NCBI RefSeq assembly: GCF_024502345.1
Contig: NZ_JALDNN010000001.1
Reading direction: 5' to 3' (one strand)
Length of the DNA stretch: 64,000 bases
Source: Escherichia coli
GTDB lineage: Bacteria; Pseudomonadota; Gammaproteobacteria; Enterobacterales; Enterobacteriaceae
In this document: positions 16,650-20,806 of the stretch, one piece after another
How the letters are laid out: every line of letters begins with the position of its first letter
Position numbering within the stretch: position 1 is the first letter of the stretch
Notes under the pieces: generated by a model
The model's input: only the letters and a program-made list of their open reading frames with translations
Databases searched by the model: none
What the model was told of the DNA's origin: nothing
Position numbers and translations under genes: made by a program

Positions 16650-16886
16650 TCATTCTGAATCTTTGAACAAAGGCAATCCTTGCGAACGCCGCCATTCTTT
16701 GACGATTTTCAGGATGTTTTCAGGTTTACCATCTTCTGGGGAATTAGGATAGAAAATGGGATCTCCCTTTTTAGGATGTTCAGTAATTTTAATGAAATGA
16801 TCCACTAAGGTATCGAGATATTTTTCTAATTTTTTCCCTTTTAGGGATTTATCTTTGCTAGTTGCATTTACTATCTCCTCAAGCAT
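16650..16886 (-). pseudogene. Orphan Im7/Im9-family DNase immunity gene copy 3, apparently frameshifted near its 5' end (78-aa remnant)
   Basis: Conserved C-terminal ENILKIVKEWRRSQGLPLFKDS tail; upstream ATG is in a different frame from the conserved TEGEFLEMLEE segment. Confidence 0.5.
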
Positions 16887-16986
16887 TTCAAGAAATTCAC
16901 CTTCTGTGTAAAAATATATTTTAAATCATGCATATACATTATCTCCTGTAGTGAATTTCATCATGTAGTCGAGACGTAACAATCCT

Positions 16987-17175
16987 TTAATTATCAATAT
17001 CATAAATTTCGCCACCACATTCAATCGCAACACTATGATATATATGGAATTCTTCAACAATTTCCTTAGATCCATAATGCCAACCTTCAAGAGGCGCTTT
17101 TGCGATTAATCCTTGTTTTATACGTGTTTGGTTACCAGTTGAAAACTGCGCTATCAACTCCGGATACTGACTCAC
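16987..17175 (-). pseudogene. Orphan C-terminal fragment of colicin-type HNH DNase toxin, copy 3 (premature stop after DIDN)
   Basis: Matches last part of the 593-aa toxin (PELIAQFS.GNQTRIKQGL); stop interrupts HNH motif; intact tail LHDEIHYRR readable beyond the stop. Confidence 0.55.
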
Positions 17176-17341
17176 CTCCAGCCAAAGGGTATCGGTGAAA
17201 GCGGGAAATTGATAAAATAACCTAATGAGATTTCAGTATTTTACCTGTTTTTTAAGAGCACCCACATTATTATTTTATGTTATTAACATCATCGCATTAG
17301 CCAGACGCGATGATGTTCCATATATAGTTTTATTATCTACT

Positions 17342-17632
17342 TTATTTAGAGTCTTTAAACAAGGGTAGCCCCTGTGAACGCCGCCATTCTTTGACAATTT
17401 TCAGGATGTTTTCAGGTTCATCATCTCCCTTCTTTGCAGGATAGTAGATAAGATCGCTCATCAACGGATGTTGTGTAATTCTGGTAAGATGTTCTTCTAG
17501 ATCATCCCAATATTTGTCAAGCTCTTCCCCTTTTAATTGAGCGTTATCCCCGGTTGGATTTGTAAACTCGCCAAGCAACTCAATGAATTCCCGCTCTGTG
17601 TAATCTTCTATTTTATCTTTAAAATTATACAT
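17342..17632 (-). CDS. Orphan Im7/Im9-family DNase immunity protein (96 aa), duplicate copy B
   Basis: DYTEREF ... HPLMSDLIYYP ... GDD ... KEWRRSQG motifs parallel Im9; identical to 18040..18330. Confidence 0.8.
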   Translation of the reverse strand: MYNFKDKIEDYTEREFIELLGEFTNPTGDNAQLKGEELDKYWDDLEEHLTRITQHPLMSDLIYYPAKKGDDEPENILKIVKEWRRSQGLPLFKDSK

Positions 17633-17872
17633 TTAACTATCTCCTGTAATAAATTTCATCATGCAAATGAGGTGTGCCCTCCTTAAATTATCAATATCGT
17701 AAATTCCGCCACTATATTCAATCGCAACACGATGATCCATGTGGAATTTTTTAACGATTTCTTTAGTGCCATAATGCCAACCTTCAAGTGGTGCTTTTGC
17801 GATTAATCCTTGTTTTATACGTGTTTGATTACCGCTTGAAAACTGCGCTATCAACTCCGGATACTGACTCAC
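17633..17872 (-). pseudogene. Orphan C-terminal fragment of HNH DNase toxin, duplicate copy B (no ATG; HNH motif degenerate)
   Basis: Homology to parent toxin begins abruptly at LWLEVSQ; first codon is GTG; IHH replaced by MDH and terminal TP..H....H lost by apparent 1-nt frameshift. Confidence 0.6.
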
Positions 17873-18039
17873 CTCCAGCCAAAGGGTATCGGTAAAAGCG
17901 GGAAAATGATAAAATAACCTAATGAGGCTTCAGTATTTTTACCTGTTTTTTAAGAGCAATCACATTATTATTTTATGTCATTAATATCATCGCATTAGCC
18001 AGATGCGATGATGTTCCATATATAGTTTTATTATCTACT

Positions 18040-18330
18040 TTATTTAGAGTCTTTAAACAAGGGTAACCCCTGTGAACGCCGCCATTCTTTGACAATTTTC
18101 AGGATGTTTTCAGGTTCATCATCTCCCTTCTTTGCAGGATAGTAGATAAGATCGCTCATCAACGGATGTTGTGTAATTCTGGTAAGATGTTCTTCTAGAT
18201 CATCCCAATATTTGTCAAGCTCTTCCCCTTTTAATTGAGCGTTATCCCCGGTTGGATTTGTAAACTCGCCAAGCAACTCAATGAATTCCCGCTCTGTGTA
18301 ATCTTCTATTTTATCTTTAAAATTATACAT
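18040..18330 (-). CDS. Orphan Im7/Im9-family DNase immunity protein (96 aa), duplicate copy A
   Basis: Identical to 17342..17632; Im9-like motifs. Confidence 0.8.
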   Translation of the reverse strand: MYNFKDKIEDYTEREFIELLGEFTNPTGDNAQLKGEELDKYWDDLEEHLTRITQHPLMSDLIYYPAKKGDDEPENILKIVKEWRRSQGLPLFKDSK

Positions 18331-18570
18331 TTAACTATCTCCTGTAATAAATTTCATCATGCAAATGAGGTGTGCCCTCCTTAAATTATCAATATCGTAA
18401 ATTCCGCCACTATATTCAATCGCAACACGATGATCCATGTGGAATTTTTTAACGATTTCTTTAGTGCCATAATGCCAACCTTCAAGTGGTGCTTTTGCGA
18501 TTAATCCTTGTTTTATACGTGTTTGATTACCGCTTGAAAACTGCGCTATCAACTCCGGATACTGACTCAC
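18331..18570 (-). pseudogene. Orphan C-terminal fragment of HNH DNase toxin, duplicate copy A
   Basis: Identical to 17633..17872. Confidence 0.6.
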
Positions 18571-18737
18571 CTCCAGCCAAAGGGTATCGGTAAAAGCGGG
18601 AAAATGATAAAATAACCTAATGAGGCTTCAGTATTTTTACCTGTTTTTTAAGAGCAATCACATTATTATTTTATGTCATTAATATCATCGCATTAGCCAG
18701 ATGCGATGATGTTCCATATATAGTTTTATTATCTACT

Positions 18738-19022
18738 TTATTTAGAGTCTTTAAACAAGGGTAACCCCTGTGAACGCCGCCATTCTTTGACAATTTTCAG
18801 GATGTTTTCAGGCTTATCATCTCCTTGACTTTTAGGGTAGAAAATTAGATCGCTCCCTGACGGATGCTGTGTAATTTCAATAAAATGATCTACTAATGAA
18901 TCCCAGTACATTTCTAGCTCCTTACCTTTTAAGGATTTTCCATCTTTCATAGATGATCTCAATCCGCCTAAAAAATTAAGAAATTCATCCTCGGTATAAT
19001 CCTGGAGCTTTTCTTTAAACAT
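18738..19022 (-). CDS. Cognate immunity protein of the Hcp-DNase toxin (colicin E-type DNase immunity, Im7/Im9 family, 94 aa)
   Basis: Starts 2 nt after toxin stop; DYTEDEF and EHPSGSDLIFYP motifs match Im9 as recalled. Confidence 0.85.
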   Translation of the reverse strand: MFKEKLQDYTEDEFLNFLGGLRSSMKDGKSLKGKELEMYWDSLVDHFIEITQHPSGSDLIFYPKSQGDDKPENILKIVKEWRRSQGLPLFKDSK

Positions 19023-19024
19023 AT

Positions 19025-20806
19025 TTATCTCCTGTAGTGAATCTCATCGTGTAGTCTGGGGGTAACAATTCGTAAATTATCAATATCGTATACGCTGCCG
19101 CCATATTCAATTGCAACACGATGATGTATCTGGAATTTTTTAACTATTTCTTTAGGGCCATAATGCCAACCGTCAATAGGTGCTTTTGCGGTTAATCCTT
19201 GTTTTATACGTGTTTGGTTACCACTTGAAAACTGCGCTATCAACTCCGGATCCTGACTCACCTCCAGCCACAGCGCCTCGCGAAACTCATCAAAGGTTTT
19301 AAACTCCCGTCCGCGCAATTTATCAGCAATATGCGCCGGGATTGGCGCGCCGTTGCCGTTATTGGATACCGACATATCCAGCCAGCGAGTTCCTGATGAA
19401 AGCGGGACGCCGCGCCCTGTTACAACACCAGGCAGCTTTCGCGGATCCTCCTTCAGGTAAACATAGATGGGCTTAATACCGGATCCCGCCGGAAAAACCA
19501 GAATATAATCGTTGAATTCTTTCGGATCAGGAACCGGGAATGGCGGCGTGGTATAGGTATCTGTACCGTCCGGAATCGGCGTCACCAGAATGGTGGGCTG
19601 ATCCAGCGGCGGCCTGTCGTTACCGGTATGGCCCGGAACATTCCCATGTTCCGGATTTTCCGGCGTCCAGGTAATCAGGGGGCCATCGACATCGTGAGCG
19701 GGGGTAAATTCATAACGCTGCGTCTGCTCGTTCCACTGCATGTTCGCCACGCGGACTTTTTCATACGGCGTACCTTCACCCGTATGAACACCATACACCT
19801 GAGGCTTGCCGTGAATATCAGTTCCCCAGAAAAAACGTACCCGGGTGGTGGCGGTACTGCCTGCTAGTGCTTTCTGCCGCAGTTCTTCCTCATACCAGAA
19901 CTCATCACGTCCGGGCACGCGAGCACTGCCCTCGCCCGCAGAGGGAATATACAAAGCAGATGCCAACGCACCGATGTAAGAGCCTCGGGTTGCACTGAGT
20001 ATGCCACTGAGCGACCATTTTCCCCATATTTGAGCCGCCAACACACTACCCGGAAACAGTAGCATGGTTTGAGCTTCTGCGGGTTGCCCGACATCGTTAG
20101 CCTCGGGATGGTGGTATCCACAGCAGTCATCAACCACTGGCTGAGCAAAAATCGCTACTTGACCGAAGTTTTCAGCGGGTTCTTCTGCCGTTCCAGCATC
20201 TGTACATCCCTTCTCCTTCAGACAGGATTTGGCATAGACCGGGTTAACCGCTGGTGAAGAGAGTGGAAGGTTAACAACTGGTAGAGGTTCAGGCTTAAGA
20301 TTACTGGCAGGTGGGCTTTTAGGCGGAATAAATAAGCTATTATAGCCAGCAGGAAAGGTCAACCAGTCAAATTCCGTATTGGCTATTAGATGTTTACATA
20401 ATATGTAGTGATAATCGACAGTTACACATTCGGTAGGAAGATTATTGTCAGAAATGTTTACATGAATAGCAGTTAATGAAGCATTTCTTAGCTGAATATA
20501 ATAATACCGTTCCCAGCGCCCGCTTTTATTTATACGATACAAATCGATTTCAATAAATAACCGCTCATTCTGATTGATGGCATTAGACAGTAGCGGTGAG
20601 CTTTTATCAATGAGTTTGCAAAATTGTAGCCCCTGTAGATTAACGCCATTACCAGTACTGGTAATGGCGTTGGTGAGTGCAAAGGCAAAAATTTCATCTT
20701 CATGGCCAACCTGCCAGCGATTACCAACCGACGCATACGTCCCACAGCCTGAAGAAATATCGCCCTGCTTCTCACCGATTATTCTCAGGTAAACAATATC
20801 GCTCAC
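19025..20806 (-). CDS. Hcp-fused polymorphic toxin: N-terminal Hcp (T6SS tube protein) domain, central linker, C-terminal colicin E7/E9-type HNH DNase domain (593 aa)
   Basis: N-terminus VSDIVYLRIIGEKQGDISSGC ... KLIDKSSPLL resembles Hcp/TssD; C-terminus APIPAHIADKLRGREFKTFDEFREALWLEVSQDPEL ... IHHRVAIEYGGSVYDIDNLRIVTPRLHDEIH is near-collinear with colicin E9 DNase incl. HNH motif; GTG start. Confidence 0.85.
   Translation of the reverse strand: MSDIVYLRIIGEKQGDISSGCGTYASVGNRWQVGHEDEIFAFALTNAITSTGNGVNLQGLQFCKLIDKSSPLLSNAINQNERLFIEIDLYRINKSGRWERYYYIQLRNASLTAIHVNISDNNLPTECVTVDYHYILCKHLIANTEFDWLTFPAGYNSLFIPPKSPPASNLKPEPLPVVNLPLSSPAVNPVYAKSCLKEKGCTDAGTAEEPAENFGQVAIFAQPVVDDCCGYHHPEANDVGQPAEAQTMLLFPGSVLAAQIWGKWSLSGILSATRGSYIGALASALYIPSAGEGSARVPGRDEFWYEEELRQKALAGSTATTRVRFFWGTDIHGKPQVYGVHTGEGTPYEKVRVANMQWNEQTQRYEFTPAHDVDGPLITWTPENPEHGNVPGHTGNDRPPLDQPTILVTPIPDGTDTYTTPPFPVPDPKEFNDYILVFPAGSGIKPIYVYLKEDPRKLPGVVTGRGVPLSSGTRWLDMSVSNNGNGAPIPAHIADKLRGREFKTFDEFREALWLEVSQDPELIAQFSSGNQTRIKQGLTAKAPIDGWHYGPKEIVKKFQIHHRVAIEYGGSVYDIDNLRIVTPRLHDEIHYRR

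Follow-up and report, generated by a model that had tools for sequence, protein, structure and literature searches.

The PAIusp island between aroP and pdhR in an Escherichia coli genome: a probable Hcp–DNase effector locus with cognate and orphan immunity genes

Introduction

PAIusp is a small genomic island of Escherichia coli, about 4 kb long, in which usp, the gene for the uropathogenic-specific protein, is found together with the immunity genes imu1-3 in the aroP–pdhR intergenic region (PMC7142922), and published accounts place it always between these two genes. Usp has been described there as combining Hcp, S-type pyocin and colicin nuclease domains. The same locus goes under several names: usp is also known as Hcp-ET3-4 or UTI89_C0121, and imu1-3 as orfU1-3 (PMC7142922, PMC3685522, PMC6730261). 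Here we describe the copy of PAIusp contained in a 64-kb window of E. coli DNA (the whole stretch analysed, 64,000 nucleotides of contig NZ_JALDNN010000001.1, assembly GCF_024502345.1). The locus very probably encodes an effector delivered by a type VI secretion system (T6SS), an Hcp–DNase fusion accompanied by a cognate and by orphan immunity genes. It is not a new locus, having been described, named, subtyped by polymerase chain reaction in clinical isolates, characterised biochemically and listed among T6SS effectors.

Four PAIusp subtypes have been distinguished, in which uspI is linked to orfU1 and uspII to orfU2 (PMC3685522). The purified Usp protein is a nuclease for which the H-N-H motif is required, and mutation of the residues equivalent to those of the motif in the window abolishes the activity (PMC3685522). 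In work on T6SS effectors, two reviews present Hcp-ET3-4 (UTI89_C0121) as antibacterial and neutralised by downstream immunity genes, which are said to comprise ‘three duplications’ (PMC6730261, PMC6099711). The literature on Usp as a genotoxin and that on Hcp-ET3-4 as a T6SS effector thus treat one gene and are rarely cited together.

The island at the aroP–pdhR site

Homology to K-12 stops at position 16375 on the pdhR side and restarts on the aroP side at 21214 (weakly) and 21297 (strongly) in blastn alignments, and the net gain over the K-12 aroP–pdhR region is ~4.65 kb (Table 1). The flanking genes are pdhR (15430-16194, minus strand) and aroP (21384-22757, plus strand). Judged by sequence identity and synteny, which make the identification direct, the insertion is PAIusp, an already-known small E. 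coli island. All of its open reading frames (ORFs) lie on the minus strand and consist of a 593-aa ORF, a 94-aa ORF and three more pairs of small ORFs. The GC content is 0.40 in the island and 0.36 in the immunity array, compared with 0.51 in the window; along the profile, the flanking genes reach ~0.53-0.56, the small-ORF array falls to 0.33-0.38 and the spacer before aroP to 0.29-0.35. The rest of the window is colinear with K-12 from 81.3 to 138.5 kb, except for a second insertion at 22791-25302.

Site-specific insertion was considered and rejected, as the ORF list contains no integrase or transposase in the island, no direct repeat of at least 9 bp was found at its flanks, and no tRNA accompanies it. 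The initial annotation, made from the sequence alone, had described ~4.6 kb of extra DNA between pdhR and aroP, with all elements on the minus strand and no mobility genes. Each of these statements is borne out by the ORF list and by the K-12 alignment, in which this content is missing from aroP–pdhR. The limits it had assigned, 16650-20806, do not bound the feature, which reaches beyond them on both sides.

No Rfam family matches inside the island. Outside it, in the pdhR–aceE spacer, the tp2 small RNA (sRNA) model matches at 15272-15385 on the plus strand, opposite to both genes, with 103.9 bits against a gathering threshold of 50.

The toxin gene usp

At the nucleotide level, usp is 98.2% identical to its counterparts in UTI89 and ATCC 11775 and 99.8% identical to those in FDAARGOS_943/944. 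All 593 codons are intact, and the protein differs from that of FDAARGOS_943 at three amino acids only. In annotated genomes, RefSeq labels the gene tssD. Four parts can be recognised in Usp, namely an Hcp domain, a proline-rich linker, a Pyocin_S domain and an HNH DNase domain of the colicin E/pyocin S type.

The Hcp domain matches TIGR03344 with 124.7 bits (E 3e-36), compared with a cut-off of 58.9, and also matches PF05638 (T6SS_HCP) and the PDB Hcp structure 6a2v (E 2e-15); with the 159-aa Hcp encoded in the aspV T6SS cluster of FDAARGOS_944, the Usp N-terminus shares 40% identity. In nuclease bacteriocins, the Pyocin_S family, PF06958, has been described as the domain for ‘inner membrane translocation’ (PMC9040868). 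The DNase domain aligns end to end with the nuclease domains of pyocin AP41, colicins E9, E2 and E7 and pyocin S2, and in the alignment with pyocin AP41 and colicin E9 the HH...N...H...H motif is complete (H561, H562, N577, H586 and H590). The NF047924 model (VPA1263) covers residues 199-590 (E 3e-63) with 214 bits, which is below its 900-bit full-length cut-off.

The cognate immunity gene and the Im family

The immunity gene imu1 begins 2 nt past the usp stop codon, and its Shine-Dalgarno sequence, AGGAGA, lies within the last usp codons; usp and imu1 are thus translationally coupled. imu1 does not differ from its counterparts in FDAARGOS_943 and ATCC 11775 (100% identity). The 94-aa and 96-aa immunity proteins match PF01320 over the whole model (E-values in Table 1), and their nearest solved structures are the pyocin AP41 immunity protein, Im7 and Im9. 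Compared with the Im7 and Im9 sequences, the Imu proteins keep the helix III motif SDLI[FY]YP, and the immunity types diverge where the Im proteins have their specificity-determining helices. Identity among the three types is 65%, and of their last 23 residues only the final one differs.

These assignments can be set beside published binding data. The Usp–OrfU1 complex is tight, and OrfU2 does not bind UspI when OrfU1 is present (PMC3685522). A high-affinity Usp–Imu3 complex is not formed (PMC3917654), which fits the status of Imu3 as an orphan.

The array of DNase tails and immunity genes

Downstream of usp, repeat analysis resolves four copies of a ~698-bp unit, the first of which comprises the end of usp with imu1, the other three being orphans. 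The units were delimited by a repeat search and MAFFT alignment, as a 698-bp period exceeds the limit of Tandem Repeats Finder. Homology of the units to full-length usp starts sharply at TGGCTGGAGGTGAGTCAG, which codes for ‘WLEVSQ’ at about residue 510. Each orphan unit consists of a conserved ~165-bp spacer, the last ~83 codons of the DNase and an immunity gene, and the junction between spacer and tail is identical across all three. Because this junction is common to all orphan units, the alignment suggests that the array arose by a single founding duplication and that unequal crossing-over and allele exchange came afterwards.

All orphan tails carry lesions. Tail 1 has a 1-nt deletion ahead of the HxxxH motif, and its HH has become DH; in tail 2, homology to the DNase runs on past a nonsense codon to the original stop codon. 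FDAARGOS_943 and ATCC 11775 have the frameshift and the nonsense codon too and likewise lack the first His, and the lesions are therefore old; in all, three other strains have inactivating tail lesions in common with the window. With the N-terminal half of the nuclease domain missing and with frameshift or nonsense lesions in addition, the tails cannot work as nucleases and are inactivated remnants, or pseudogenes. The idea that they serve as a reservoir for toxin switching was rejected, since every tail has a frameshift or nonsense lesion common to several strains. The dissection into units thus lays out the history of the array, from the breakpoint near residue 510 to the shared inactivating lesions in the tails.

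The last immunity gene, imu3, has lost one unit of an AAAATAT tandem repeat at ~16916-16922, a 7-bp deletion near its 5' end. What is left in frame of the 96-aa imu3, whose ATG lies at 16931-16933, is a 78-aa ORF (16650-16886). From this deletion, imu3 is predicted to have lost its function.

Each immunity gene is followed by a perfect hairpin of 10-13 bp that has no U tract. In addition to the hairpin past imu3, these lie on the minus strand at ~17291-17323, ~17989-18019 and ~18687-18717. The folding z-scores range from -2.9 to -3.7 for these three and amount to -1.4 for the imu3 hairpin, which occupies the same position as the rest with another stem sequence. The hairpins could act as processing, stability or attenuation signals.

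The initial annotation had anticipated much of this organisation. Its fusion of Hcp to an HNH DNase is supported by significant domain matches (TIGR03344, PF21431), although it missed the intervening Pyocin_S domain. Its closely coupled Im-family gene is the PF01320 protein encoded just past the toxin stop, and its three orphan ‘tail plus immunity’ modules are indeed present, with the qualifications that two are identical in protein, that imu3 is broken and that the tails are inactivated. Likewise, the T6SS Hcp extension-toxin organisation it had named agrees with Pfam/HMMER matches for Hcp, DNase and immunity family that are all significant, and is already known as Hcp-ET3-4. The architecture of a polymorphic toxin locus was thus recovered correctly from raw sequence alone.

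Table 1. Positions of PAIusp, its genes, domains and associated signals in the window
Feature	Position	Strand	Evidence or remark
PAIusp island	16376..21213		4,838 bp in place of the ~189-bp K-12 aroP–pdhR spacer; blastn, colinearity, GC
aroP P3 -10 hexamer TGGTAT (divergent)	21240..21245	-	ATACCA on the plus strand; within the K-12-homologous flank
usp / hcp-ET3-4, 593 aa, GTG start	19025..20806	-	ORF; identity to the UTI89 and FDAARGOS_944 genes; RefSeq tssD
Hcp (TssD) domain, residues 1-146	20369..20806	-	TIGR03344, PF05638, PDB 6a2v
Pyocin_S (PF06958) domain, residues 309-450	19457..19882	-	Pfam E 1e-40; PDB 3mfb E 8e-18
Colicin/pyocin HNH DNase domain, residues 460-591	19034..19429	-	PF21431 (Col-Pyo_DNase) E 6e-42
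imu1, cognate immunity gene, 94 aa	18738..19022	-	PF01320 E 8e-30; PDB pyocin AP41 immunity protein, Im7
Orphan DNase tail 1, copy one	18331..18570	-	Unit alignment; weak match to the DNase end of NF047924
imu2 copy A, 96 aa, orphan	18040..18330	-	ORF; 99.7% nucleotide identity to FDAARGOS_943 imu2
Orphan DNase tail 1, copy two	17633..17872	-	Protein identical to copy one
imu2 copy B, 96 aa	17342..17632	-	PF01320 E 7e-28; protein identical to copy A
Orphan DNase tail 2	16936..17175	-	TTA>TAA nonsense codon, ORF ends at 16987; HH changed to YH
imu3 (orfU3), frameshifted	16650..16933	-	Alignment to the intact 291-bp imu3 of FDAARGOS_943
12-bp perfect hairpin without U tract, just past imu3	16592..16626	-	Folding

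Distribution and variation of the island

Of 5426 complete E. coli genomes, 1058 carry usp, with 94-99.8% identity and in no case on a plasmid; among the carriers are UTI89, ATCC 11775, ST131 and NC101. The order aroP, usp, immunity, tail, immunity, tail, immunity, pdhR is found in UTI89, ATCC 11775 and FDAARGOS_943/944. Islands of the ST131 type occupy the same site; these and related islands run imu1, tail1-imu2, tail2-imu3, tail1'-imu2' and so have four immunity genes and three tails, as seen in Ecol_AZ159 (L006:3494-7657) and SCU-115 (L007:2169-6288). Because the ST131-type islands carry a different arrangement, the number and order of the modules vary among lineages.

In the window, the immunity genes follow one another as imu1, imu2, imu2, imu3, the tail1-imu2 unit being tandemly doubled (an extra 698 bp). 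The proteins of the two units are identical and their DNA is ~98% identical. Among complete E. coli genomes no two adjacent identical tail1-imu2 units were found, the best match to the two-copy stretch being 93.1%. Similarly, the 7-bp imu3 deletion is absent from all 1028 of the 1028 genomes that hold the stretch (best identity 94.1%, 118 bp compared with 111 bp). imu1, imu2 and imu3 can all be identified, but none of the islands inspected shows the order with the doubled imu2. Both the extra unit and the deletion could plausibly have arisen by slippage during replication or by unequal crossing-over, and either feature could also be an assembly or sequencing error. If they are real, the strain displays ongoing array dynamics, with a tandem duplication and a frameshift of its own.

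The closest complete island carrier, FDAARGOS_944, possesses a complete T6SS cluster at aspV that comprises tssA-M, tssH/clpV, two hcp genes and vgrG.

Promoter and read-through

In UTI89 and S. bongori, usp is driven by the aroP P3 promoter, which is activated by TyrR with aromatic amino acids and repressed by H-NS (PMC7142922). No LexA box was found anywhere in the island, and SOS control of the colicin kind was rejected on this ground. Consensus scans for promoters and terminators gave counts no higher than in shuffled sequence and are uninformative on their own; with this limit, the imu3–pdhR interval has no predicted canonical terminator on the minus strand.

The whole usp–imu array is oriented toward pdhR. 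Because only U-less hairpins and no canonical intrinsic terminator were found before the pdhR promoter, transcription from P3 might be imagined to read through the array into pdhR-aceEF-lpd and so to tie aromatic amino acid and urea signals to pyruvate dehydrogenase, a scenario to which we give very little credence. If it were true, changes in array length, such as the extra unit described above, would alter the coupling to pyruvate dehydrogenase.

A proposed mechanism and its alternatives

We hypothesize that usp is transcribed from aroP P3 under TyrR activation and H-NS repression and that Imu1 binds the DNase and blocks it inside the producer cell. The Hcp domain would then load Usp into the tube of a T6SS with genes elsewhere in the genome, the firing of which would deliver the protein to a neighbouring bacterium. 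For Hcp-ET proteins, reviews credit Ma et al. (2017) with reporting secretion that depends on the T6SS and killing that depends on contact (PMC6730261, PMC6099711). Subsequently, the Pyocin_S domain, in a step inferred from work on pyocin G, may help the DNase over the inner membrane, and the HNH DNase would degrade the target chromosome unless a matching Imu is present. PF06958 is needed for import of pyocin G across the inner membrane via FtsH and co-occurs with nuclease effectors carrying Hcp, PAAR or VgrG (PMC9040868), and for these reasons Pyocin_S may take the Usp DNase through the inner membrane once it is in the periplasm; the same suggestion has been made before (PMC9602870). The downstream modules would represent ‘C-terminal tip plus immunity’ units displaced by allele replacement (uspI/orfU1 compared with uspII/orfU2) and by unequal crossing-over, and the orphans imu2 and imu3 probably protect against other usp alleles.

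Several observations weigh against T6SS delivery as the explanation of this locus. In the two reviews consulted on Hcp-ET proteins, T6SS-dependent delivery is stated explicitly only for Hcp-ET1 and Hcp-ET2, and all three immunity copies are said to help neutralise the toxin, a poor fit to one cognate gene with two orphans (PMC6730261, PMC6099711). The 64-kb window contains no T6SS gene, and tssF in the aspV cluster of FDAARGOS_944 is annotated as frameshifted (NZ_CP065613.1, 3723487-3725329; L009:18487-20329), so that the T6SS-1 of this strain may be disabled. An extension of ~450 residues would have to travel with the Hcp ring. The role of Pyocin_S in T6SS effectors is hypothetical according to the two papers in which it is discussed (PMC9040868, PMC9602870), and papers on Usp lay more weight on genotoxicity towards mammalian cells than on the killing of bacteria.

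The last point leads to an alternative that we consider unlikely but worth serious thought, in which Usp is chiefly a genotoxin acting on mammalian host cells, a urovirulence factor, and the immunity genes only protect the producer. Usp is active on mammalian cells, is tied to strains from pyelonephritis, prostatitis and bacteraemia and is induced by urea (PMC7142922, PMC3917654). However, the combination of Hcp, an inner-membrane translocation domain and a colicin-type DNase is the design of an interbacterial T6SS effector, and a diverged immunity array with displaced toxin tips makes sense only under selection of bacterium against bacterium. The two roles are, moreover, not mutually exclusive.

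It is less probable still that the island in this particular genome is a silent or decaying relic, silenced by H-NS, deprived of a working T6SS and gathering lesions. The imu3 frameshift, unseen in 1028 other genomes, the pseudogene state of all orphan tails, the tssF annotation in the closest relative, the AT-rich promoter region of usp (GC 0.31) and the reported repression by H-NS (PMC7142922) are all consistent with decay. Against this, usp retains its full reading frame and its catalytic motif, with few differences from the FDAARGOS_943 protein, imu1 is completely conserved, the P3 -10 hexamer is intact, and the loss of an orphan immunity gene does not put the toxin–immunity pair out of action.

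Parret and De Mot proposed a bacteriocin from homology (as cited in PMC3685522). An operon for a diffusible bacteriocin of the colicin kind, set free when the producer lyses and entering its target by way of an outer-membrane receptor, would suit the closeness of the DNase and immunity domains to those of colicins E2/E7/E9 and pyocins S2/AP41, but it is highly improbable, as the N-terminus is an Hcp above the curated cut-off and not a receptor-binding or Tol/Ton translocation domain, the island holds no lysis gene or further ORF and no LexA box, and the locus is chromosomal in all 1058 carrier genomes and never on a plasmid.

Other observations in the window

The second insertion, a small one relative to UTI89 as well as K-12, is located between aroP and ampE and contains genes for a GPH:cation symporter (22916-24322, plus strand) and a GH43 glycoside hydrolase (24322-25272, plus strand); it is held by 53 of 5426 complete E. 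coli genomes, with up to 99.9% identity. At the ftsA–ftsZ junction, in the chromosomal dcw cluster, the Rfam model PssrA (‘plasmid-encoded Shigella sRNA A’) matches at 40007-40096 on the minus strand with 105.5 bits, and the antisense RNA StfZ is annotated on the opposite strand at this junction in K-12. Within yacH, the K-12 alignment overlaps itself by ~284 bp at 8603-8886, and the copy number of an internal repeat therefore differs from that in K-12.

Comparison with known systems

The locus in the window resembles PAIusp of UTI89, strain Z42 and ATCC 11775 in its aroP–pdhR site, gene order, orientation and tail remnants with their lesions. It differs from the reference PAIusp, which has three immunity genes in place of four and no imu3 frameshift. 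Hcp-ET3-4 (UTI89_C0121) is the same gene as usp, with Hcp, Pyocin_S, a colicin DNase and repeated immunity genes (PMC6730261), and usp has what defines the Hcp-ET family, an N-terminal Hcp and a C-terminal toxin with an adjacent immunity gene. In the work of Ma et al. (2017) on the Hcp-ET family, PF06958 was called a second toxin, ‘Pyocin S3’, whereas later work on pyocin G assigned it to inner-membrane translocation (PMC9040868).

With colicins E2/E7/E9 and pyocins S2/AP41, usp–imu1 has in common the HNH (His-Me finger) DNase fold, the four-helix Im protein and the position of the immunity gene immediately downstream. In contrast to these bacteriocins, usp is chromosomal and has an Hcp delivery module instead of receptor-binding and Tol/Ton domains; in contrast to the colicins, the locus has no lysis gene and no SOS box and is under TyrR/H-NS control instead of LexA control (PMC7142922). 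VPA1263 of Vibrio parahaemolyticus, a T6SS effector of the MIX-LysM-Pyocin_S-HNH type, shares with Usp the C-terminal cassette of Pyocin_S and HNH DNase. Its delivery module is that of a MIX/LysM cargo effector, whereas that of Usp is Hcp, and with 214 compared with 900 bits the two are not equivalogs.

The array itself is most readily compared with the orphan tip arrays of Rhs and CdiA and with the orphan immunity arrays of the Vibrio cholerae T6SS, in which displaced 3' toxin fragments with immunity genes likewise lie downstream. In both the usp and the Rhs/CdiA arrays, homology to the main gene begins at a conserved pre-toxin stretch. The usp array differs from those of Rhs/CdiA in that its units are ~698 bp long, its tips comprise ~83 codons and every one of these tips bears inactivating lesions that several strains have in common.

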